64,000 bases of DNA from Scenedesmus sp. PABB004. Its lineage: Eukaryota. How positions within the stretch are numbered: the stretch's first letter is position 1; each line of letters starts with the position of its first letter. Location: positions 2,294,001 to 2,358,000 of the forward strand of contig JABVCE010000002.1 of NCBI GenBank assembly GCA_014905635.1. The letters run 5' to 3'. The notes under the pieces were generated by a model. That model ran no database searches and was not told where the DNA came from. It saw only the letters and a program-made list of their open reading frames with translations. Position numbers and translations under genes: made by a program. Below are positions 16,759 to 57,995 of the stretch, piece by piece.

Positions 16759-19700
16759 TCACGCCTCCATCGCGTCCTCGTACTTGCGGTCCGCGTCGCC
16801 GCTGCCGCCCGCGCCATACTCCTCGTCGCTGCCGCTGCCGTCGCCGCTGCCGTCGCCGCTGCCGCTGCCGCTGCCGCCCTCCTCGCCGCCGTCGCTGCCG
16901 GACGCGTCGCCGCTCTGTGCCGGGGCGGCGGCGGCGGCGACGGGCGCGGGGTGAGCGGGGCATGCAGCGCGCGGCGCGCCGCGGGCGCGAGGCGCGTGGT
17001 GTGGGTGCCATTTGGAGCCGTGCGCGGCCCACGGGCGGGGGCCGTTAGGTAACGAGTGGCACCCCGGGGTCTGCTGCTGTGGGTTGAATCGTACTAGTTG
17101 GGACGCTACCGCGCACAGCGGCCCAACACTCTCGCAACCGTGTGCTGCCTGCTGCCGCTGCGCCCGCGCGCGCCCTGGCGCCGCGCGCGCCCCGCCCCGC
17201 GCCCCGCGCCGCGCCGCGGCGCACCTCGCTGCCGCTGCGCAGGCCGTCGGCGTCGTTCGCGGCGTCAAAGTCAAAGTCTGACCCCGGCTCCTCGCCGTCG
17301 TCGTCGTCGCTGTCGTCGCCGAGGCCCGCCGCCGCGGCGCTCGCAAAGTCGGCCTTTGCGCGCTTGGCGCGCTGCCGCTCCGCGCGCGCGCGCTTGGGGT
17401 TGTGCTGCCCCAGCTCCGCGTACAGCTCCGCCGTCTGGCCCTTGGCGCCGGCCTTGGCGCCGCGCGGCGCGGCCGCGGGCGCGCCGTACGCGTCCGCGTC
17501 GCCCTCGTCCATGGCGGCGCCTGCGGCGGCGGCGCGGCGGCGCGGGCGTCGGGCGCCGGGCGCCGCGGGGCGCGGCGCAGCGCACGGCGCGGGCGCGGCG
17601 CGCGGGGCGCACCGTCTGCGTCGGCCTCCTCCGCCTCCCCTGCCTCCTCTGCCTCCATCTCCGCCAGCCCCGCCGCGACCGCGCCGGCCGAGGCGGCCTC
17701 GAAGAAGCCCGCGGTGTTGTCCTCGAGCGAGGGCAGGTGCTGGATGACTGCGCTCGCCTCGGCCGCAAACACCCTGCGCGCGCGCGCGCGCGCGGGCGCG
17801 CGGGCGGGGCGCGTCGGCGGCGGGCGGCGGCGGCGGCAGGCCCCCGCGGCGGCGGCGTTTGCGCAGGCCCCCGCGCCGAGCGCCGCGCACTTGTCGGCGT
17901 CAAACTCGGCCGCCCAGTCGCCGACGACGGCCGCGGTGTCGTACGCGTCGTTGGGCCGCGCCGCGGGCGGGGAGGTGTAGTATGGGATGACGCCGCTGTT
18001 CCAGTCCTGCAGCACGATACGCGCGGCGGCCTGCGCGGGCGCCGGCGCGCAGCGCGGGCGGCGGGGCGGCGGGGCCGCTGGGCGCGCGGCGCGGCGCGGC
18101 GCACGAGGGAGGGCGCGAGAGGGGAGGGAGGGAGGGAAAGAGAGAGAACGGGAGAGGTGTGGTGTGGGGTGCAGCCCACAGAGAGGGATGTGGGTGCCGA
18201 TATTCGAAGATCAGTGCATCGCCCTGGAGCGGGCTCCCCATCCCCGGAGATCGGCACCGCCGCCGCTCTGGCCCCTGCTTGAAACCGTGGCAGCACCGCG
18301 GCCGCCGCCACAGCTCTTCACTTCAGGGCCGCGCCGCGCCGCGCCGCGCGCGTGCGACGCTGCGCCCCGCCCCCGCCGCCGCCGCCGTTGCTGCCGACAC
18401 CGCCGCGGCGGCCCCCGGGCGCACCTCCGTGTCCACGACGCCGCCCTTCTTGAGCTTGCCGCGCGCCGCCGCGATGGCCTGCAGGAAGCCGTCCAGCCCC
18501 TCAAACGCGCCCACGCGGTACACCGCCATCAGCTGCGCCGCCGGCACGCGGCGCAGGATCTCGGCCACGGGCGTGAGCGGGTCGGCCAGGCGCTCGACCT
18601 GCGCGGCGCGGCGCGGCGCGGCGCGGCGCGTGGGAGGGCGGCGGGCGCGGGGGCGGGCGCGGGGGACGGCGCCGCCGGCGGCTGGGCGGCGCGGCGCGCC
18701 TTGACCGCGTTGCGCAGCGCCGCCGCCGCCGCGCCCTCGCCGCTCGTGAAGACGATGCCGGGCGAGTCCAGCAGCCTGCGGCGGCGGCGGCGGCGGCGCG
18801 GTTGGCGGCGGCGTGCGCGGTCGGCGGCCGGGTCAGCGAGGCCGGGCGAGGGCGGCACGCCGCGCATCATCATCATGCTGGCCCCACCTGATGTGCTTGT
18901 CCAGGTGAATCTCCTGCACGCCCTTGGTCACGCCCGGCGTGGAGCCGACCTGCGCGGGCGCCGCGCGGCGGCGGCAGCGGTCAGCGCCCGGGCCGGCAGC
19001 GGCCCGCCGCGCGCCGGCCTGGCGGCGGCAGCAGCCTGGCGGCGGCGGCGCAGCGGCGGCCTGGCGGCGGCGCGCACCTGCGCGACGCGCGCGCGCTTGA
19101 GGCTGTTGATGAGGCTCGACTTGCCCACGTTGGGCAGGCCGATCACGCCGACCGTGATGCTGCCCTTGCCCTTGCCGCCCATCGCGTTGCGCGCATAGTT
19201 CTTCAGCAGCTGCGCGTGTGTGCGTGCGTGCGTGTGCGTGTGCGTGTGTGTGGGAGCGCGGGGGGGGGGGGGGGGGCAGGTGAGAAGAAACGCACGAGCG
19301 AGAGAGATGGGGAGGGGGAGGGAGCCAGGGGGCAGGCGGAGCGGCGCGCGGCACGAGAGGCCCCGCGCGGGCGCGCGGGCCCACCTGCAGCAGCGTCTCG
19401 GCGCCGAGGCAGCCCGCGCCGGCGGCGCCGGCGGCGCCGGCAGCGCCCGCCGCCTTGCCCTTGGCGCCCTTGGCGCGCGCGGCGCCGCCGCGCGTGCGCG
19501 CGAGCCCCTCGGCCTGCTGCTGCGTGGAGGCCTTGAACCCCAGCGCCGGCAGCTCCTGGCGGTAATACTTGAGCCACGCCTCGCCGACCTCCCGCGGCAC
19601 CAGGTCTGCCGCGCGGGCGCGGGCGGCGGCGCGGCGGCGGCCGGGCGCGCGTCGGCCGCCGCGAGCTCTTGCGCGCGCGCTGAGCCCCGGCCGCCGCTGA

Positions 19701-21125
19701 GCCCCGGCCGTCGCTGCGCCCCCGCCGTCGCTGAACCCTGGCGGCCGTCGCTGAACCCTGGCAGCCGTCGCCGCCGCTGGCTGGCTCACCCATCTTGTTC
19801 AGCAGCAGCACGATGCGCTTGCCGGGGTCGAGGCTGCGCACGTAGCGCTCGACGTCGGGGCAGCGGCAGCCCGCGGGGTCGCGCGCGTCGAGGACCTGAA
19901 TCACCACGTCGCTCGACTCGACGACGCGCCGAAACTCCTTGTAAAAGGCGCGCCGCGAGTTGTCTGCGCGCGGCGCGCGGCCCGCGGCGCGGCGGGCTGA
20001 GCGCGTGGCGCGAGCGCTCGCACGCAAGAGAGAGAGGGAGAGAGGGAGGGGAGGGAGAGGGAGTGAGAGGGGTGGTTGGAGTGAACTGTGGGTGCCGATA
20101 TTCGAAGATCAGTGCATCGCCCTGGAGCGGGCTCCCCATCCCCGGAGATCGGCACCGCCGCCGCTCTGGCCCCTGCTTGAAACCGTGGCAGCACCGCGGC
20201 CGCCGCCACAGCTCTTCACTTCAGGGCCGCGCCGCGCCGCGCCGCGCGCGTGCGACGCTGCGCCCCGCCCCCGCCGCGCCGCGCCGCGCGCACCCGCGTC
20301 GCCAGCGCCGCCGCCGTCGCTCGCCAGCTTGGCGCGCTTGCGCGCCTCAAAGTCGCTGGCCTTGTGCCCCGCGCTCGCCGCGAGCGCCGCGAGCGCCTGC
20401 GGGTCGCCGAGCTCCGCCTCCATCGCCCCCGCCGCGCGCTCCTGCGCGCAGGAGACGGGGGGGGGGGGGGGGGGGGGCGTCAGCTGCCGACCCCCGCGCC
20501 GTACCGCGCTGCGCGCTGCGTGCGCTGCGTGCCGCGTGCGCCGCGTGCCGCGCGCGCCGTGCGCCGTGCGCCGCGCGTCACCTCGCGCGCGCGCTTCTTG
20601 GCCTCCTTCTTGGCCTTGTCCGCGAGCAGGACCTGCTGCCGCTTCCAGGCCATCTCCTTGAGCAGCTCCTCCTTGAAGGGCCACTGCGAGGGGATGCCCG
20701 GGTCCTTGGGCTCCTGCGGCGGCGGCGAGCGGGCGGCGGCTTGGTTGGCGGCGGCGAGCCCCGGCGGCAGCGCCGCCAGCGCGGCGCGCGGGCGCGGCGT
20801 GGGCGCGGGCGCGGCGCGGGCGCGGCGCACGCGCCTTGGGCTTGATGCCGGCCTTGGCGCGCTTGCGCTCCTCCTTGCGCTTCTTCTTGTGGTGCTCGCG
20901 CACCTTCTTGATGACCTGCGCGCCGCCGGCCGCGGCGGCGGCGGGTCGGCGGCCGCGTCCTGCGGCTGCACCATTGCGGCGCGCGGGCCCCGCGCCGGCG
21001 GGCTGTGGGCCGCCGGGCCGCCGGCGGCGCGCAGCCAGCAGCGCGACCCCGCGGCGGACCTTGTACTTTTGCTTCAGAGACATGCGCTTGCTCTTGGACT
21101 TTTTGGACCGCTTGGCGCCCACCAT
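16759..21125 (-). CDS. NSN1: Nucleostemin-like circularly permuted nucleolar GTPase (GNL3/NSN1/Nug1 family)
   Basis: Basic N-terminus [74 protein letters not shown]1 motif [33 protein letters not shown] and [14 protein letters not shown]. Acidic C-terminus. Confidence 0.95.
16997..17142 (-). ncRNA. Intronic box H/ACA snoRNA (type 1) in the last GTPase intron (16915-17224)
   Basis: Minus strand: GGTTG-[CGAGAGT]-GTTGGG..CCCAAC-[TAGTACGATT]-CAACC, H box ACAGCA (17075-17080), second hairpin GGGTGCCA..TGGCACCC, then ACA (17000-17002) plus 3 nt. Both pockets complement conserved 25S rRNA sequences. Confidence 0.85.
18186..18330 (-). ncRNA. Intronic box H/ACA snoRNA (type 2, copy 1) in intron 18031-18424
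   Basis: Hairpin 1 GGCCCTG-[AAGTGAAG]-AGCTGTGGCGGC/GCTGCCACGGTT-[TCAAG]-CAGGGGCC, hinge AGAGCG, hairpin 2 GGTGCCGAT-[CTCCGG]..[TCGAAT]-ATCGGCACC, then ACA at 18189-18191. Confidence 0.88.
19679..19770. repeat. Degenerate 17-20 bp intronic minisatellite (GCTGA(A/G)CCC..GCCGTC)
   Basis: Five related units. The last two, gctgaaccctggcggccgtc and gctgaaccctggcagccgtc, differ at one base. Confidence 0.7.
20084..20228 (-). ncRNA. Intronic box H/ACA snoRNA (type 2, copy 2) in intron 19964-20293
   Basis: Identical to copy 1 from the ACA box (20087-20089) through the 5' hairpin. Only the 3 nt after ACA differ. Confidence 0.88.
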
Positions 21126-24587: not shown

Positions 24588-26859
24588 TCACGCGCTGGCC
24601 GGCTCGGCGTCCACGTCGCCGCCGGCATCGTCGCGGGGCGCGTAGTAGTCGCCGCCGGCGTCGCCCTCGGCCGCCGCCTCAGCCTCGGCCGCGGCCGCGG
24701 CCGCGGCCTCGGCCTCGGCCGCCGCCGCCGCGGCCTTGGCGAGCGACGTGGCGCCGCGCGTGGCGATGAACTTCACAATCTCCTGCCGGTCGACTAGCGG
24801 CTTGCACACACCGCCGCTGCCGTGCTTGAGCACGGCGACCTTGAGGTTTGGCGGCGCGCCCTCGCGCGACTTGAGCCCCTGCGGCCGCGGCGGCCGCGGC
24901 GGCGGCCGCGCCGTCGGCGGACGTGCCCCGCGGCGCCGCGGCGCGCGGCCCGCAGCGGCGCCGCGCGGCGCGCCGCACCGAGACGTGGGCGTCGCCCTCA
25001 AAGCCGGGCGTGTCGTCCATGTCGGTCAGGAGACCGCCGACCGTGAACACCGCGACGCTGTGCCCCGTGTCGGCGGCAAAGCGGTTGGCCTGCGGCGCGG
25101 CGCAGCGCGCGGGCGTGTGGGCGCGGGCGGGCTGCGGCGGCCGCGCGCGCGCGTGCGGCTGCGCGCGCGCGCACCTCCTCCACGAGCGCCGCAAATCGCT
25201 GCCGCAGCGCGCCCAGGCCCATGCTGCCCTCGTGCGGCAGCTCCTCGTGCTCGGGCGGCTCCACCGGCGCCAGCCGCGCGCGCTTGGCGTCGTACGACTG
25301 CTGCTGCTGCTGCTGCTGCTGCTGCGGCTGGCCCATGCCTCCGCCCATGGGCCCCGGCCCCGCGTCCATGTGCCGCTTCTGGCCGCCGCCCTGGCCGCCG
25401 GCCATGCCGCCGCCGGCCATGCCGCCGCCGGCCATGCCGCCGCCGGCCATGCCGCCGCCGGCCATGCCGCCGCCGGCCATGCCGCCGCCGGCCATGCCGC
25501 CGCCGGCCATGCCGCCGGGACCCATGACGCGGCCCCCCAACATGTTGCCGCGCTGGCCGCCGCCGCCTGGCGGCGCGCGCAGCTCCTGCTGCCTGCGGGC
25601 GCGGGCGGCCGGGGCGGTGGTGAGCGTTCGCGCCCGCGCTCGCGCCCGCGCGCGCGGCCCGCGCGCACCCGTGCGCAAAGGTGCAGTTCGTGCCGTAGCG
25701 GCACTGCCCCTCGGCCATGAACTGCTCACACAGCCGCGTGCGCCAGGCGGCCTTGTCGCCGCCCATGCCGCCGCCGCCGCCGCCCATGCCGCCGCCGGCC
25801 ATCATGCCGCCACCGCCACCGGGCACCGTGCCGCCACCGCCACCACCGCCCATGCCGCCCTGCTGCCGCATGCCGCCGCCGCCGCCGCCGCCGGCGCCGC
25901 TCAGGATGGCGGTGCCGTGCGGCGTCATGATGCGGCCGCGCGGCGGGCCGCCGCCCCGCGCCGCCGGGGCCTGGGCGCAGGTCGCTCTCGCCGTGCGCGT
26001 ACTTGCAGGTCGGGCCGTAGTTGCACTTGCCCTCCATGAACCTGCAGCACAGGCGGCGGGCGGGCGCGGGCGGGCGGCGGGCGGAGCCGGCGGGCGGGCG
26101 TGAGGCGGCGCGGCGGGCATGAGGCGGCGCGGCGGGCGTGAGGCGGCGCGGCGGGCGTGAGGCGGCGCGGCGGGCGTGGGGCGCGGCGCGGCAGCGCGCG
26201 CGCCCGGGCCGCTGGGCGTGGCGGCTGGCGCTGCGGGGCGGCGCCGCACCGGTGGCAGATCTTGGTCTTGTAGAAGCGCGAGTCCGCGGGGTCGCCGGAC
26301 ATGCCGCCGCCCCCGCCGGGCATGCCGCCGCCGCCGGGCATGCCGCCGCCCATGCCGCCGCCGCCCATGCCGCCGCCGCCGCCCATGCCGCCCCCGCCGC
26401 CCATGCCGCCGCCACCCATGCCGCCCCCGCCGCCCATGCCGCCGCCGGGCATGCCGCCGCCGGGCATGCCGCCGCCCATGCCACCGCCGGGCATGCCGCC
26501 GCCGCCCATGCCGCCGGGCATCATCATCCCGGGCATGCCCATCGCCCCGGGCATTCCCATCATGGCGGGCATCTGCGGGCGTGGGCGGCGCGGCGTGTGA
26601 AGCGGCAGGGCAGCGCCGCCCGCCGGCGCCGCCGCTGCCGCTGCTGCTGCTGGCGCCCGCCGCCGCCCGCCGCCGCGCCGGGCCTCCGCGCCGCCCCCCG
26701 TGGCCGCACCATCATGTTCATTGCGTCGGCGCCCATGCCGCCGGGCATCATGCCCGGGTTCATCATCATCGAGGCCATGGGCATCGAGCCCATCGGCATG
26801 CCGCCCATCGACCCCATCCCCATGCCGCCGCCCATGCCGCCCATGCCCTGCTGGTTCAT
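24588..26859 (-). CDS. Tandem CCCH zinc-finger RNA-binding protein with Gly/Met-rich low-complexity regions
   Basis: YKTKICHR|FMEGKCNYGPTCKYAHG and WRTRLCEQFMAEGQCRYGTNCTFAHG. GGM-rich repeats, and a C-terminal domain ending in ORF 24588. Confidence 0.88.
25401..25517. repeat. Coding 15-bp tandem repeat (GCCATGCCGCCGCCG) x~8 encoding (GGGMA)n
   Basis: Perfect 15-bp periodicity visible in the sequence. Confidence 0.95.
26098..26178. repeat. Intronic 19-bp tandem repeat (GCGTGAGGCGGCGCGGCGG) x4
   Basis: Units start at 26098, 26117 (one mismatch), 26136 and 26155, in the intron that splits CCCH finger 1. Confidence 0.9.
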
Positions 26860-36114: not shown

Positions 36115-39100
36115 TCACGCCGCGACGACGGCCCCGCCACCGCCAAAAAAGTGCGCGCGCGCGGCCGCGGCGTCGGGCCAGGTGCCGACCAGGTGCGGCC
36201 GCATGAGGCGATACACGGCGGCAAAGGCGCCGCCGTCGCGGGCCGCGGCGGCGGCCTCGAGGAACGACGCGGCGGGGACGCCGACCGCGGCGACGCCGCC
36301 CGCGGCGCGCGCGAGCCGCGCCGCCTGCAGCACCTGGCCCATCGCCAGCAGCTCGCGCACGAGCGCCGACGTGGAGGCGCGCCCGCCCGCGGCGCCGTCC
36401 GCGGCGCCGCCTGAGCCCCCGCCGCCGCCGACTGGGCGCAGCTCTGGCACGGCCTGGCGCGACATGACGTCCAGCGCCAGCTCAGCGGCGATGGCCGCGC
36501 CGGGCCCGCCCGCGCCGTCGGCGCCGCCGCGGCGCGACACCTCGAGCAGGTGCGCCGCGAGCGCGGGCGAGCCCGCGCCGGGCTGGCTGTAGAGCAGCTG
36601 CACCGCCTGGTAGGCCTGGCCCTGCTGCAGCAGCAGGTCCACGCCCAGCGTCTGCACGTACGGCGGCGGCGGCACGCCCGCCGCGTCCGACGCGGCGCAA
36701 TACTCAGCGACCGCCGCCTGCGCGCGCGCGTGGGCGGGCGGTGAGCGTGCGCTGGGCGGGCGGTGAGCGCGCGCCGGGCGCAGCCCGAGGCCTGCGCGCC
36801 GCGCCCTCCGCCGCCGACGCGCGCCTGCAGGTACAGGGCGTCCACGAGCTCCTCGTCGTGCACCCACTGGAAGAGCTCGCGCGCCAGCGCCGCCGGCGTG
36901 ACGACCGCGACCGCGGGCACGCCCGGCCCCGCCGCCGGCGCGGCGGCGACGGCGCCGGCGCGCCCCCGGCGCGGCCGAGCGCCTCGGCGTGTGCCTGCGG
37001 GGCGAGCGGGGCGAGCGCACGGGCGAGCGCGCGAGCGCGGACGCGCGCTGGTCAGGCGCGGGCACGCGGGTGCGCGCGGGCGCCGTCCGCTGCGCGGCTG
37101 CCGTGCGCTGCGCGGCTGCCGTGCGGCGCGCGCCGACTCGGCCCCGTGCGCGTGGCGCCCCCGTGCGCGCCTGCAGCAGGCTGTCGAAGATCGCGCGCAC
37201 GACGCCGAGCGGCACGCGCTCCTGCAGCGCGCCGCGCGCGACGCCCATGAGCAGGCGCCGCGCGTCGGCCGCGAGCGGCGCGCCCGGCGGCAGGCTGTGC
37301 CGGCGCAGCAGGAAGCCCACGAGCGCGGGCCAGTCCTCGGCCGAGTCGGCGATCGCCTGCGCACGGCGTGTCGCGCGGCGCCGCGCCGCGTCAGTGGGCG
37401 GCGCGCGCGGGCGCCGGCGCCGGGCGCCCGGGCGCGCGCGCCGCGCCGCGCCGCGCCTGCAGGTCGAGCTGCAGCCGGCCCACGCTGTTGGTGGCGGCGT
37501 CGTGGATGACGCAGGGCATGTGGTAGCGCCACGCCGCCGCGTGCTGCACCTCGCTCGACTCGTACACCTCGGCGCCGCCGCTGCTGCCGCCGTCGGGCGC
37601 CCCCGCCGCGCCGCCGCCGCCGCCGCTGCTGCTGCCCGCGCCGCCGTCCCGGCCCGCCGCCGCTGCCGCCGCCGCGGCCGCGAGCGCAGGCGGCAGCAGC
37701 GCGAGGCGGCGCAGCGGCAGCGGGTTGGCGACGTGCGCGGCGGTGGGCAGCGCGACGTCAAAGATCATCGCGACGGACGTGTCGGGCAGGTGCACGACGA
37801 GCGCGTTGTCCACGACGCTCAGCGCCACCGCCGGCGTGGGGAGCTCGTACACGTGCTGCAGGATGATGGTGTCTGTGTAGAAGCGGTACAGCTCCAGCGC
37901 CGCGCCGCCGCCGCCGCCGGCGCCGCCGCCGGGGCCGCGCGCGTCGGCGTGCGCGAGGTACACGCGGCCGTACATCTTCAGCAGCCACAGGCGCTCGGGG
38001 CGAGGCCGCGGTGCGGGCCGCCGCCGCCGCCGGCGGCGCCGCCGCCCAGCGCCGCCGCGGCGGCGGCGGCGGCAGCGGCGGCGGCGGAGCGGGCGGCGCC
38101 CCGTCGCCGGGCGCGGGCGCGGGCGCGGGCGACGGCGCGGCGGGCTGCGGCGGCGGCGGCAGCGGCGGCTGCTGGAAGGGGCCGGACGCCGGCAGGAACT
38201 GGCGCACCGCCGCGGACGCTGGCAGCGGGCCCTGCGCGATGGCGGGCGCGGCGCGGTCAGCGGGCGGCGGCACGCATGCCCCGCCCTGCGGCGACGCGCG
38301 CGCAGCCGAGCGGCCGGCCCGCCGGCGCCCCCGTGCGTGTGCCGCGCGGCGCGCGCGCGCCTGCAGCTCAAACGTCGGCAGCTGCGTGATGCCGTGGCTC
38401 GCAAACTGCCACGCCATGAGCGCGCTGCGCGGCGGCGCGGCCGCGCCGACGAGCACCATGCGCGTCTCGTACGTGTAGTGCGCCCACGCCGCCGCGCAGC
38501 GGATGCGCTCGCGGACGCGCAGGCCCTGGCGCCTGCGGCGCGGGCCGGGCCGGGTCGGACCGGGCCGGGCCACGTCGGCGGGGCCAGCGCGCTCGCTGCG
38601 CGCGCGCGCGCCGCCCGGCCGCGCAGCCCGCCCGCCCGGCCCCGCTCGCTCGCCGCCGCCGCGGCCGCCGCACCGCGCGGCAAACTGCGTGAGCTCGACC
38701 GCGCGGCTCGTGACGACGACGAGGTCTGTGTCGGGCGCGTCGGTGAAGAAGAAGGCCAGAATCTCGCCGCGGCCCTTGTGGATGCTGTGCGCGAAGCACA
38801 GCCCGCTCGCGAGGTCGACGAGCTCCAGCAGCGCCGCGCTGCGCTGCACCGCGAGTAGCCGGTTGTCCAGCGACGGCCGCAGCGCGAGCACGGGCGGGCC
38901 CTCCTGCGCGGCGCGCGGCGCGCGGCGCGCGGGTGAGGGGCTCGGCGGCCGCGTGTGCAGGCCCTGCAGCCGCGCGCGCGGGCCCCGCGGCGCCGCAGCC
39001 GCGCGGGCGGGCCCCGCGCCGCCGCCCGCACCTGCAGCGGGTACATCCAGCGCAGGCTGCTGTCGCCGGCGGGGCCCTTGGAGACGTCGTAGGCAAACAC

Positions 39101-52097: not shown

Positions 52098-52728
52098 CTC
52101 CAAGCCCTGGGGAGCTTTTGGCGTTGCCCGCCCGCGGGGCGCAGCGCAGCCCGCGGCGCGCGGAGGTGGTGTGCGACGCGTCGGCGCGGTGGCGAGGGGG
52201 CGGCCAGGGCTGGCAGGGGGAGCGGCAGGCTGCGAGTCAACCGCGAGTCTCCTCGCGCCGGGCATCTTCGCGCGGTCGATGCCGCGCGAGGTTACTTCGC
52301 GCACAGAGAGAGCGCCACCAAGCACGAGAACGGCGAGCCCGCCGCTGCCGCTCCCCGGCCGCGCTGCCGGCGGCGCGGCCGCGCGCGTCGCGCGCGCTCG
52401 GGCCACGGCGGCGAGCGCCCTGCCGCACCGCACCACCGTCTCCAGGCAGCTCTGCAGTACCTCAAGAACGGGCCGGCGGCGCCCGTGCGCGGTCGAGCGC
52501 GGCGGCGCGCGGCCGTGGCGCGGCGGCAGACCTGCCGGCGTCGCCTCGATGACTGCGTGGCTCCCCGACCGGCCACGCCTTCATCCAGGCGACGCCGGCG
52601 CTGCTGCCGCACAGCCCACCAGCGCGCGCGCGTCCACTCTAGGCGGCCAAGCGCGACCTGGCCCCACGCGGCACACGCAGGGGCGCGGAGCTGCCGCCGC
52701 CGCCAAACGCCGGCGCGACGGCCTCCAC

Positions 52729-52856
52729 GCCGGAGAACAAGGCGGCTTCTTCGCTTCTTCTACGCGGCCGTGGAAGAAGCAGAAGAAGAAGCCGCGCGGC
52801 TTCTACTTCTTCTTCTTCCACGGCCACGGAGAAGAAGGCGCGCCTTCTTCCCCGGC
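52729..52856. repeat. Long imperfect inverted repeat (fold-back hairpin) rich in GAA/TTC
   Basis: Core arms 52766-52795 and 52796-52825 are 28/30 reverse-complementary. Outer arms extend to 52729 and 52856 with one bulge. Confidence 0.9.
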
Positions 52857-53055
52857 ATGAAGGCCGTCGCCGGCGCCGGCGCCGGCCTGCGGCGGGGGGC
52901 AGAGACGGGGGTGAAGAGCGGCGGCAGTGGTGGCACACGCGCCAGCCGGGCGCGCGCGGGGTTGGTGGCGCGCGTCTCGTTGGCGCGCCGCCGACCACCA
53001 ACACGTGGGCGCGCTCGAGCCGCGGGCGACCAAGAGCTGCGGGCAAACAAGGAGG

Positions 53056-54307: not shown

Positions 54308-56651
54308 ATGGCGGCGCCGGCGCCGCGCGAGCGCAAGCGCAAGTGGGACGCTCCCGCGCCGGACGGGGCCGCCGCATCGGGTGGAGGCGGCCTCACGCCG
54401 TCCATGGTCGCCGGCGCGCAGGCGGCAGCGGCGGCGGCCGCCCAGGCGCTCGCGGTGCGCTCCGCCGCGCCCACCGCGCAGCGCGGCAGCCGTGCGGCCG
54501 CCCAGCACGGCCGGGGCTGGACCTTCGAGCTCCCCGCGCCCTGAGCGCCGCAGATCGCGCCAGCCGGCGGCCCGCCGCGCACGGCAGCGCCGCCGCTGCT
54601 GCTGCCGCCGCTGCTGCCGCCGCTGCTGCCGCCGCCGCTGCGCCGCCTCTCACCCCACCGCCCACTCCCACTCCCATGCCCCGCGCCCCCCGCGCAGGGC
54701 GGCAACCCCGCCGCGCAGGCGGCCGCGGCCACGATCGCGGCCGAGATGGCAGCCCAGGCGCTCGCGGCCGCGGCGGCGGCCGGCGGCGGCGCGCCGCCGC
54801 GCGGCGGCGGCGCCGAGATTGCGGCAGAGGTCGCCATCAACGACGCCGCGCCGGCGGCGCGCCTGCTGCTCACCAAGCGCGCGGTTCAGGAGGAGATCAG
54901 CCGCCGCACGAGCGCGCTGCTCACGACGCGCGGCCGCTACATCCCCGACGGCGCGTCGGCCGGCGGCGAGCGGCCGCTCCACCTGCGCATCACCCCCGGC
55001 ACCAAGGCCGGCGAGGTGCGCGCGGCGCGGGGGCACGGGGCGCGCGCGCTTCCGCCGCCGCGGCCACGTGGCGCCGCGCAGCCCCCGCGCCGCCCACACC
55101 GCGCCGCCGCCCGCACCGCGCGCCGCCGTCGCAGAGCGACGAGGCAAAGTGGCGCGCCGTGGACGCCGGCGTCGCCGACGTGCGCGCCATCATGGCCGGC
55201 GTGCCGCTCACACAGCTGCCGCCGCCGGGCGCGCTGCTCGCGCCGCCGGCGCCGCGGCCCGGCGGCGCCCGCGCCGGCGCCGCGCCGGCCGCGCTCGGCC
55301 CGCCGCCGCCCGCGGGCGTGCCCGGCGCCGCCCCCGCGGCGGGCGCGGGCGGCGCCGGCGCCGGCGCGTGGCGGCCGCAGGTGGTCAGCAACGCGCCCAA
55401 CCACGCCTCGGTGCTCGTGGGCTTTGAGGCGCCGCCCGAGTTCAACCTCGCCGCCAGGCTGCGCGGGCCGGGTGCGCCCGCGCTCGCGGGCCCGCCGCGC
55501 GGGCAGGCGACCGCCGCCGCCGCCGCCGCCGCCGCCGCGCCAGCGGGCGAGAGCGGCGGCCGCGCTGACGGCTGCACGCGCCGCGCCGCGCCGCGCGCAG
55601 GCGACGCGTATCTGTCGCACATCGCCGTCGCGACGAGCTCGACCGTCGTGCTCGCCGGCCGCGGCAGCGGCGGCGGCGCCGCGGCGCCGTGGCAGCAGGC
55701 GCAGCCGCTGCACCTCAGCATCACCGCGGCCTCGCCCGCCGCGCTGGCCGAGGCGCAGCGGCTGTGCGAGGACCTGATCGTCACCCTGCGCGCCGAGCTC
55801 GCGGCGCAGCGCCCGGGCTGGCTTGAGAGCCCCGCCGCAGCCGCAGGCGCGCAGGGCGCGCCTCCGCCGGCCGGCGCGCAGCAGCAGGGCGCGGCGGCGC
55901 CGCCGTCTCCGTACGCGGCGCCCGGGCCGGCGCCCGCCGGCCAGCCCGCAGCGGCGGCGGGCCACGCGCCCCAGGGCGGCGGGCCGCCGGCCGCGTTCCC
56001 GGCCGGCGCGCCCGCGCCGCAGGCGTGGCAGCCGCAGCAGCAGCCGCAGGCACAGCCGCAGCAGCTGCAGCACGCCTACTGCGCCCAGCAGCAGCAGCCG
56101 CAGCAGCAGATGCCTCACGTGCAGTACCAGCTGCAGTACCAGCAGCAGCAGTACCCGCAGCCCCTCGGCCCCGCGAGCGGCCAGCAGCAGCAGCCCTACT
56201 ATGGCGTGCAGGCCCCCGGGCAGGCGGCGTACGGCTACCAGCCGCAGGCAGGCCCGCCACAGGCGCAGCAGCAGCAGTTCTACGCGCAGGGCGCGCTGCC
56301 AGGGCAGCAGACACCCTACGCGCAGCAGCAGCCCCACGCGCAGCAGGGCTATGTGCAACAGCCCCACGCGCAGCCCTACGCTCAGCAGGGCGGCAGCTAC
56401 GCTCCGCCCGGCCACATGGCCCCGCCCGGCGGCGGCGGCTTCGCCCCGGGCGGCGGCCCCCGCAGTGGGGCGCAGCGCCGCAGGCGCCGGCGGGCTGGGG
56501 CGGGCCGGCGGCGAACACGTATGCCTATGGCGGCGCTGGCGGTCCCTACGGGGCGCCGGCGGGCCAGCAGCAGCTCGGGGGGGCTCCGTACGGCGCCCCG
56601 CCGGGTGCCTACCCGGGGCAGCAGCAGCAGGCCGGCCTGCAGCAGCAGCAA

Positions 56652-56691
<40 letters not shown>

Positions 56692-57499
56692 CGCAGCAGC
56701 AGGGGCACCAGCACCAGGCGCAGCAGGCGCAGGAGCAGGCGGCGCCGGAGAAGAAGCGGCGCTTCAGGGAGACCAAGGAGGACGCACCCGCGCCGCAGGG
56801 GCAGCCGCTGCAGGTGCGCGCCGCGCGGCGCGCGGCCAACCGCGTGGCCGGCCGCGCTGCAGCGCCCGCCGCGCTGCCTGACGCCTGCTGCCGCGCGCCC
56901 GCCGCCGCGCCGCAAGCAGGGCGGCTTGGTGCACCCCCAAAACCCCTACTCCCAGTACAGCCTGCTGCAGGCGAGCGCGCAGCAGGGCCAGCGGCAGGGA
57001 GGCCACCCTCAGCAGGCGCAGCAGGCGATGGCGCCGCCGCCGCCGCGTGCGCCCATGGCGCCGCCGCCGCCCCGCTTCAACGCGGCCCCGCCAGGTAGCG
57101 CGTCGCTCCGCGCGGGCATGCGCCGGCGCAGCGCGCGTGCCCCGCGGGCCGCCGGCCCCGCAGCGCGCGCGCCGCCGCAGCGGCCGCGCCCCGCCCGCGC
57201 GCCCCTCTCGCATCTCGAGCTGACGCCGCCGCCCTCCCCCATCGCATGTGGCGCCGCCTCCCCCGTCCCATCTACCGCCGCCCACTTCATGCGCGGTTTG
57301 CTCTCACCCCCGCGCCGCTGCCGCCCGCCCACCCGCCGCTCCCCCCGTACCCTCGCCCTCCCGCTGACGCCCGCCGCGCGTCGCGCGTGTTTGCCCGGCC
57401 CGCCTGCACCGCGCCGCCGCCGCCACCGCCCCTCCAGGCCAGCAGCAGGGCAGCGACGTGCTGGCGAACCTGCTGGGCGGCTACGGCGGCGACGAGTGA
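54308..57499 (+). CDS. RIK/KHDC4 (Blom7)-like tandem KH-domain RNA-binding protein with Q/P/G/Y-rich tail
   Basis: RKRKWD, EVAINDA..RLLLTKR.VQEEI..T.RGRY..ERPLHLRIT, FNLAARLRGP|GDAYLSHI..V.L.GRGSG..PLHLSI..A.RLCEDLI.T, KKRRFRE. Ends LLGGYGGDE*, with TGTAA at 57551. Confidence 0.88.
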
Positions 57500-57555: not shown

Positions 57556-57781
57556 CCCGGCGGCTGCCGGCCGGCGAGCTGTGGAGATCCAGCCCGACAC
57601 GCCAGCAGCGCAGCCGTGCCACACGCGACGCTCGCGCGACGACGCGAGCGAAAACGCTGCCGCGGCGCGCCGCCGCTGCCAGCGCTGCTCTCTGCGCGCG
57701 CGAGCGCGCGGCGTGCGAGCCGCAACGTCGACGGCACCGCATCGCTCACACGCCGCGCGCCGGGTGCCGGTGAGCGGCGCG

Positions 57782-57814
<33 letters not shown>

Positions 57815-57995
57815 GCGCGCGTTTCGGCCGCGCCGGCGCGCGCAGGGGCCGCAGGCGGCCTGGCAGCCGCGCCCACGAGCCCTCCGTCACGTCCCTGCCC
57901 TCCACGCCCGCCAGGGCGGCCGCTGAGCCGGGGCGGCGCGCGTCCGCGGCGGCGCGGCGCGGCGCCCGCCGCGCGCGCCGCCGCCGGGCGCGGCC

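Follow-up and report, generated by a model that had tools for sequence, protein, structure and literature searches.

Two intronic copies of a probable box H/ACA snoRNA in Scenedesmus sp. PABB004, with a guide pocket complementary to a mapped plant 18S pseudouridine

The window analysed here is a stretch of 64,000 nucleotides (nt) of the green alga Scenedesmus sp. PABB004 (contig JABVCE010000002.1, positions 2,294,001 to 2,358,000), the genome of which is given as 39.8 Mb with 78.5% GC (PMC12571836). One gene on the minus strand of this window carries, in GT-AG introns and on the sense strand, two copies of a 145-nt element that is a probable box H/ACA small nucleolar RNA (snoRNA) of known type, its class membership being provisional. 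Translations of the host exons matched the Pfam families GN3L_Grn1 (PF08701, E 5.3e-10) and MMR_HSR1 (PF01926, E 1e-6), in two of five stretches, and because of these matches we take the host to be a nucleolar GTPase of the GNL3/Grn1/Nug1 type, which makes it a ribosome-biogenesis gene. Genes of ribosome biogenesis are typical hosts of snoRNAs. We consider it likely that the element is an intronic pseudouridylation guide of the box H/ACA type, present twice in its GNL3/Grn1-type host and directing the formation of one pseudouridine in 18S ribosomal RNA (rRNA).

The layout of the element is that of the class: from 18330 to 18186 a hairpin, the hinge with AGAGCG, a second hairpin, and ACA followed by three further nt (Table 1). 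This had been the outline of the sequence-only reading, a first interpretation of the locus, and the strings that it gave for the 3′ pocket, the 5′ pocket and the hinge all lie on the minus strand where it had placed them. UGAAG is found at 18320-18316 and a second time at 18325-18321, with UCAAG at 18282-18278. The minimum-energy fold consists of two hairpins with the hinge in between and a 7-nt tail in the two-hairpin layout, and when the pockets, hinge and tail were constrained to be single stranded the canonical hairpin-hinge-hairpin-tail fold was obtained, so that the two hairpins of the box H/ACA class are present in both. The element also stands out in composition. GC content is 75–83% throughout the window, in keeping with the figure given for the genome, and the RNA has 68% compared with 76–94% for the intron flanks; three of the four pocket strands have only 33–40%, including both strands of the 5′ pocket at 38–40%.

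The rRNA used for target scans came from metagenomes. With a conserved 18S motif, 104 ribosomal DNA (rDNA) loci were fetched, one of which (L001) has complete small-subunit (SSU), 5.8S and large-subunit (LSU) genes and supplied the scanned rRNA; the remaining loci served to check the conservation of sites, and Arabidopsis contexts were taken from the supplements of papers. None of the 104 loci resembles the native organism, the highest locus GC being 63.5%, and an 18S scan of viral contigs returned no loci. For eukaryotic guides, the distance from guide to box is usually 15–16 nt, and at least 8 base pairs (bp) are formed in total with at least three on each side, as set out in the review PMC7991803; an alternative range of 13–16 nt appears in PMC5249026.

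Scanned against L001 rRNA with the structure held fixed, the 3′ pocket found its best site at SSU U380, where 13 bp including one G-U pair gave a score of 12.5, against 8.5 for the runner-up. The count falls to 12 bp when the uppermost U-A pair of the lower stem is kept closed. When the guide bases were shuffled, none of 1000 shuffles reached 12.5, and under looser conditions, with registers left free and the rRNA itself shuffled, the score of the 3′ pocket was reached by 9 of 300. The first guide base lies 16 nt ahead of ACA, which is the canonical spacing. Left unpaired as the target is the first U of the GA-UU-CC of 18S rRNA, flanked by 6 bp on one side and 6 (or 7) on the other. The sequence-only reading had named the 18S string GUUCGA-UU-CCGGAGA and proposed 13 bp around its UU. 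The string is real: it occurs in an Arabidopsis context in a supplement as well as in the fetched 18S loci, although in the latter this holds by construction because they were fetched with the motif. The proposed pairing has held up as the outstanding match, and as a prediction from complementarity the 18S target can be called well supported. A second pairing of the same pocket, between 18208-18250 (minus strand) and 18S UUUGGG-UU-CCGGGGG, needs five G-U pairs and a 17-nt spacing; we rejected it, and it is probably unused. The site concerned matches the context of an Arabidopsis pseudouridine listed at 1104 among the printed rows of PMC6793436 Table S3.

The uridine that the 3′ pocket would present coincides with a pseudouridine mapped in a land plant. 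The Arabidopsis Pseudo-seq rows list TAGGGTTCGA"T"TCCGGAGAGG in 18S for both rDNA loci, with a peak of about 12.9 that is among the higher values of the 18S rows listed (Sun et al., 2019; PMC6793436 Table S3). The 'relative position' given in that table is 383; the absolute positions (4067 for site 360 and 4088 for the target site) give 381. Several 18S sites listed there without a guide have a 'relative position' 2 above their own absolute coordinates, and later tables use the lower numbers. In the compilation of Streit and Schleiff (2021; PMC8351944 Table S3), U381 is a mapped site of Arabidopsis 18S with its snoRNA entered as 'nd' and with no human or yeast counterpart. The 3′ pocket described here is complementary to exactly this site, for which Arabidopsis has no assigned snoRNA, and is predicted to present this very U. 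We regard the match between the pocket and a mapped plant pseudouridine as the strongest single argument for a working guide. In human 18S the neighbouring U is reported to be 2′-O-methylated (Um428), and in wheat it is reported to carry no modification and touches a plant-specific protein tail (PMC10743738), so the local modification pattern differs among lineages. The main texts of the papers on the tomato, tobacco and wheat ribosome structures make no mention of a pseudouridine at this 18S site. A plant-lineage pseudouridine is reasonable to expect here because of the green-algal (Scenedesmaceae) lineage of the DNA: an exon of 163 residues in the adjacent WD-repeat gene matches the NCBI protein WRAP73 [Scenedesmus sp. 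PABB004] at 100% identity, and the matches that follow are from Scenedesmus sp. NREL 46B-D3 and Tetradesmus obliquus (70% identity), followed by other Sphaeropleales and Chlamydomonadales.

Table 1. Positions, in window coordinates, of the candidate snoRNA, its parts, its second copy and the introns that hold the two copies.
Feature	Position	Strand	Remarks
Candidate H/ACA snoRNA, copy 1	18186..18330	-	145 nt: 5′ hairpin, hinge, 3′ hairpin, ACA + 3 nt
5′ hairpin	18270..18330	-	from sequence and folds
5′ hairpin, lower stem	18330-18325 with 18275-18270	-	6 bp
5′ hairpin, pocket strands	18324-18315; 18283-18276	-	GAAGUGAAGA; UUCAAGCA
5′ hairpin, upper stem	18314-18284	-	12 bp, G+C-rich
Hinge	18269-18259	-	11 nt, AGAGCGGCGGC
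H-box position	18264..18269	-	AGAGCG (ANANNG), immediately 3′ of 5′ hairpin
3′ hairpin	18193..18258	-	upper stem-loop begins 18243/18208
3′ hairpin, lower stem	18258-18250 with 18201-18193	-	9 bp
3′ hairpin, pocket	18249-18244; 18207-18202	-	CUCCGG; UCGAAU
3′ pocket, 5′ guide element	18244..18250	-	UCUCCGG, pairs with 18S CCGGAGA
3′ pocket, 3′ guide element	18202..18207	-	UCGAAU, pairs with 18S GUUCGA; first base 16 nt ahead of ACA
ACA box	18189..18191	-	one nt (C) past 3′ hairpin; then UCC down to 18186
5′ flank shared by both copies	18331..18379 (= 20229-20277)	-	G+C-rich, 100% identical
Host intron of copy 1	18031..18424	-	GT 18424-18423, AG 18032-18031
Copy 2 of candidate RNA	20084..20228	-	identical from 5′ stem through ACA; tail GUU (UCC in copy 1)
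Host intron of copy 2	19964..20293	-	GT 20293-20292, AG 19965-19964

The two copies belong to a repeat of sharply defined extent. A repeat search found that 18189-18379 recurs at 20087-20277 with 100% identity, 1898 bp apart, and the 66-nt 3′ hairpin has two exact occurrences in the window where none is expected. When aligned, the copies are identical from some 50 nt ahead of the 5′ hairpin through to the last A of ACA and no further; beyond it the two loci have only a pyrimidine-rich character in common. Elsewhere in the window there is no comparable perfect repeat and no further copy. The identical 5′ flank probably belongs to the stretch of DNA that was duplicated and not to the mature RNA. 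Chlamydomonas snoRNAs, for their part, are said in the title of a cited paper to be organised in intronic clusters. Directly after both copies come C/U-rich tracts of about 60–80 nt (18105-18185 and 20023-20083, minus strand) that cannot be aligned with one another; they may represent fast-evolving low-complexity sequence or an intron feature that the two have in common, such as a polypyrimidine tract. The single sequencing run listed with this DNA, a freshwater metagenome presumably of DNA (share 0.07), provided a 399-nt contig across copy 2 that differs by one letter within the piece 20076-20228, and this places a near-identical organism elsewhere but has no bearing on expression. The 5′ part of the host gene also contains a homopolymer of about 18 bases (C on the minus strand) near an exon boundary, within window positions 20434-20474.

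The H box deserves separate consideration, since it had been singled out as non-canonical. AGAGCG is the correct reading, and since the only A residues of the hinge are the first and third bases of this hexamer, ANANNA cannot be found in any register. That the form is unusual is not supported, however. The 18 of 175 'reinhardtii' places listed from PMC5122169 include at least five Chlamydomonas H/ACA headers from four families, and whilst the other four H boxes listed are canonical (AAATCA, AAACTA, ACACAA and ACAACA), CrACA18 is annotated with ACAGCG, and its printed sequence has no ANANNA in the hinge. In the same source, homology-predicted loci also deviate, according to pipeline annotations: the five wheat snoR2 entries listed have AGAGAG (twice), AGAGGG, ACAGAG and ACATAG, and relatives of snoR109 have AGAAGC or AGAGGT. 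Because published annotations share the deviation, we treat position 6 as a matter of consensus and not as an absolute criterion, and its G is taken to be a tolerated variant. The deviation is thus real and is not novel, having a precedent in a related alga. The wheat examples, from genomes that are not GC-rich, also argue that GC pressure, which had been put forward as a possible cause, is not needed for such drift. Box H/ACA snoRNAs of green algae and plants, such as the CrACA families of Chlamydomonas, resemble the present element in having two hairpins in about 140 nt and a 3′ ACA box. CrACA18 also has the pattern A-N-A-G-C-G in common with it, but its printed sequence has neither UCUCCGG nor UCGAAU, so the two are not of the same guide family; and of the 12 occurrences of TCTCCGG listed from PMC5122169, none falls in a Chlamydomonas H/ACA entry.

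The 5′ pocket presents a less clear picture. The sequence-only reading had proposed a dual SSU/LSU guide, and while the 18S part of that proposal is well supported, the 25S part is weak. The 25S string on which it relied, UUUGA-UC-CUUCG, does exist, in all seven of the fetched loci whose sequence extends into this LSU region, and the count of 10 bp with two G-U pairs was right. The site is moreover a conserved pseudouridine, corresponding to Arabidopsis U2855, human U4412 and yeast U2865 (PMC8351944 Table S2; PMC6793436 Table S3; PMC5699541; PMC3542256), and the respective guides are snoR160, ACA16 (SNORA16) and snR46; Arabidopsis snoR160 is assigned 18S U1306 in addition, not U381 (PMC8351944). 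The 5′ pocket here can pair with the site of these three RNAs, as 5 + 5 bp, but with a spacing of 13 nt to the box compared with 15–16 nt. The score is 9.0, which 69 of 1000 guide shuffles reach, and with free registers it lies below the mean best shuffle score of 9.26.

Could the RNA then be a genuine H/ACA snoRNA with a single guide, the 3′ pocket acting on 18S rRNA only and the 5′ hairpin contributing to assembly or stability, or serving some target other than 25S? Candidates for such a target would be the 18S U equivalent to L001 U961, a small nuclear RNA (snRNA) or a lineage-specific rRNA site. We place this reading a little short of an even chance. Single guides are common, making up 71 of 190 human H/ACA snoRNAs, and the 25S register departs from the usual 15–16 nt described in PMC7991803. 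In the 14-nt register, SSU U961 of L001 comes out best: with 11 bp (3 + 8) and two G-U pairs it scores 10.0, above the 25S site, and 21 of 1000 shuffles reach this value; the 15-nt register contains nothing outstanding (best score 8.0, reached by 194 of 1000). However, U961 has only 3 bp on one side and, by our own reading of the table, matches no Arabidopsis pseudouridine in the printed rows of PMC6793436, and in the register in which A16-U48 closes the upper stem the conserved site equivalent to Arabidopsis 2855 and yeast 2865 is the only one in L001 rRNA with at least 3 + 3 bp. The low GC of both 5′-pocket strands suggests a constraint on their sequence, and because they stay A/U-rich in a genome of 78% GC, the 5′ pocket is probably a guide as well. 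If it is, the 25S site equivalent to yeast 2865 is its most likely target, an assignment that we make tentatively and hold to be somewhat doubtful, the high prior of a universally conserved site being weighed against the short spacing.

The case for an intronic guide to an 18S pseudouridine starts from what is directly observed: how the element is built and duplicated, the gene that hosts it, its complementarity to rRNA as gauged against shuffles, and the fact that the sites so paired coincide with pseudouridines mapped in plants. A number of points count against it. The folding energy is unexceptional for the composition (z = -1.80, with 10 of 200 shuffles folding equally well or better) and remains so when the 5′ flank common to both copies is included (z = -1.66). 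The minimum-energy fold partly closes both pockets, through CGG-UCG in the 3′ hairpin and UGAA-UUCA in the 5′ hairpin, and in a fold of 18383-18186, with the 5′ flank added, the hinge pairs with upstream sequence. The two copies, being identical, offer no support from covariation. AGAGCG keeps A1 and A3 of the strict consensus ANANNA but has G at position 6, and the 5′ pocket lacks a compelling target at a spacing of 15–16 nt. The targets were assessed on metagenome rDNA and Arabidopsis contexts. At gathering thresholds, Rfam gave no match anywhere in the window, and no family threshold was reached. The best sub-threshold match of the element, which speaks in its favour, was to SNORA17 (RF00560), with 17.1 bits against a gathering threshold of 29 and E = 1; this weak full-length alignment takes in both the hinge box and ACA, but it mirrors no more than the overall H/ACA shape and gives no family assignment. 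Finally, no H/ACA guide is predicted in Ostreococcus tauri for the corresponding 18S position (PMC7671301 Table S4), and guidance of this site is therefore not known to extend across all green algae.

Some of these points would also fit recently duplicated intron DNA without function, arising by segmental duplication, gene conversion or a small repeat and folding in an H/ACA-like manner by chance. Such an origin could account for a duplicated unit (191–195 nt) that runs about 50 nt past the 5′ hairpin into plain G+C-rich sequence, for a folding energy within the shuffle range, and for the off-consensus H box and the lack of an Rfam family. It would not predict that no guide shuffle in 1000 equals the rRNA match of the 3′ pocket, that the U so matched has been mapped as a pseudouridine in a plant and sits correctly within the pocket, at the proper distance from ACA, or that both copies lie on the sense strand in introns of a ribosome-biogenesis gene. 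The copies also cease to be identical precisely at ACA, the element is an island enriched in A and U, and the 64 kb contain no other copies or similar 100% repeats; we therefore judge this origin improbable. The remaining alternative concerns the G at position 6, which might disable the H box and leave a decaying or poorly accumulating snoRNA, or else a unit of the trypanosomatid kind made up of the 3′ hairpin and ACA. The ANANNA consensus is indeed absent, and the snoReport paper (PMC5249026) refers to single-hairpin H/ACA-like RNAs of Leishmania in which no H box can be recognised. Against this, A1 and A3 are retained, two identical copies are maintained, and ANANNG is annotated in CrACA18 with ANANNG, ANANNC or ANANNT in the homology-predicted plant loci listed in PMC5122169, and we see only a slim chance that the box is disabled.

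If the locus does encode an intronic guide, its expression, processing, protein binding and modification of 18S rRNA can, we infer, be envisaged along the lines established for intronic snoRNAs, from which the following mechanism is drawn. The RNA would be freed from the spliced intron and trimmed back to the hairpins, which Cbf5, Nop10, Nhp2 and Gar1 would shield by binding to ACA and to the AGA within the hinge box. The trimmed RNA would then act in the nucleolus, where the 3′ pocket would pair with 18S rRNA on both sides of GA-UU-CC and present the first U to Cbf5, 16 nt from ACA. The expected product is a pseudouridine corresponding to Arabidopsis 18S U381.

A search of the entire window for a hairpin and box combined with rRNA complementarity gave 32 matches, and apart from the two copies most of them fell on G+C-rich, apparently variable parts of L001 LSU rRNA. 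The one further match to a conserved LSU stretch, with its box at +17267, is antisense to the host gene and, by our reading, 3 nt away from the mapped Arabidopsis site. At 38690-38752 (plus strand) a hairpin followed by AGAAGA (+38747) has a 17-bp bipartite match to L001 LSU 2624, but it lies in coding-looking sequence, involves a GAGCUC palindrome and matches an apparently variable LSU stretch. All of these matches were put down to chance. This search yielded no credible second H/ACA candidate in the 64 kb, and the 'type 1' snoRNA of the sequence-only reading was not found. A permissive Rfam scan of the whole window returned 11 weak matches, none of them a snoRNA, and islands of low GC inspected by eye resembled intergenic sequence or untranslated regions, and were set aside as not being snoRNAs.

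Several unrelated features of the window may be recorded. At 52715-52870 (plus strand) lies a near-perfect hairpin of about 156 nt composed of GAAGAA/CUUCUU-type repeats, with a folding energy of -109 kcal/mol (z = -11.9, none of 200 shuffles being as stable) and a weak resemblance to the Rfam model of the MIR838 precursor (46.5 bits, the gathering threshold being 190); it could be a microRNA-like precursor or a plain inverted repeat. Tandem arrays of 15-nt (also 12–21-nt) units of the GCCGCCGGCCATGCC type occupy 25364-25580 and 26282-26549, and if coding on the minus strand they would specify a repeat protein rich in Met, Gly and Pro. Long CAG/CAGCAG repeats are found at 56019-56780 and 57770-57870, and would be glutamine-rich if coding.

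In conclusion, the locus provides one data point on the deviation of H boxes in very GC-rich genomes, and would otherwise be an ordinary intronic snoRNA in a typical host. A bolder view, which we think rather unlikely, would make it the first member to be identified from the guide family that serves plant-lineage 18S U381 and, together with CrACA18, an indication that chlorophycean Cbf5 particles accept A-N-A-G-C-G hinges, position 6 being dispensable in this lineage and free to follow the extreme GC bias of the genome. Should the assignment of the 3′ pocket be true, the RNA would offer a specific candidate for the guide of an 18S pseudouridine that has been mapped in Arabidopsis but lacks an assigned snoRNA. 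The missing U381 guide of land plants could then be sought by means of the guide elements described here, and in this lies the main value of the locus.

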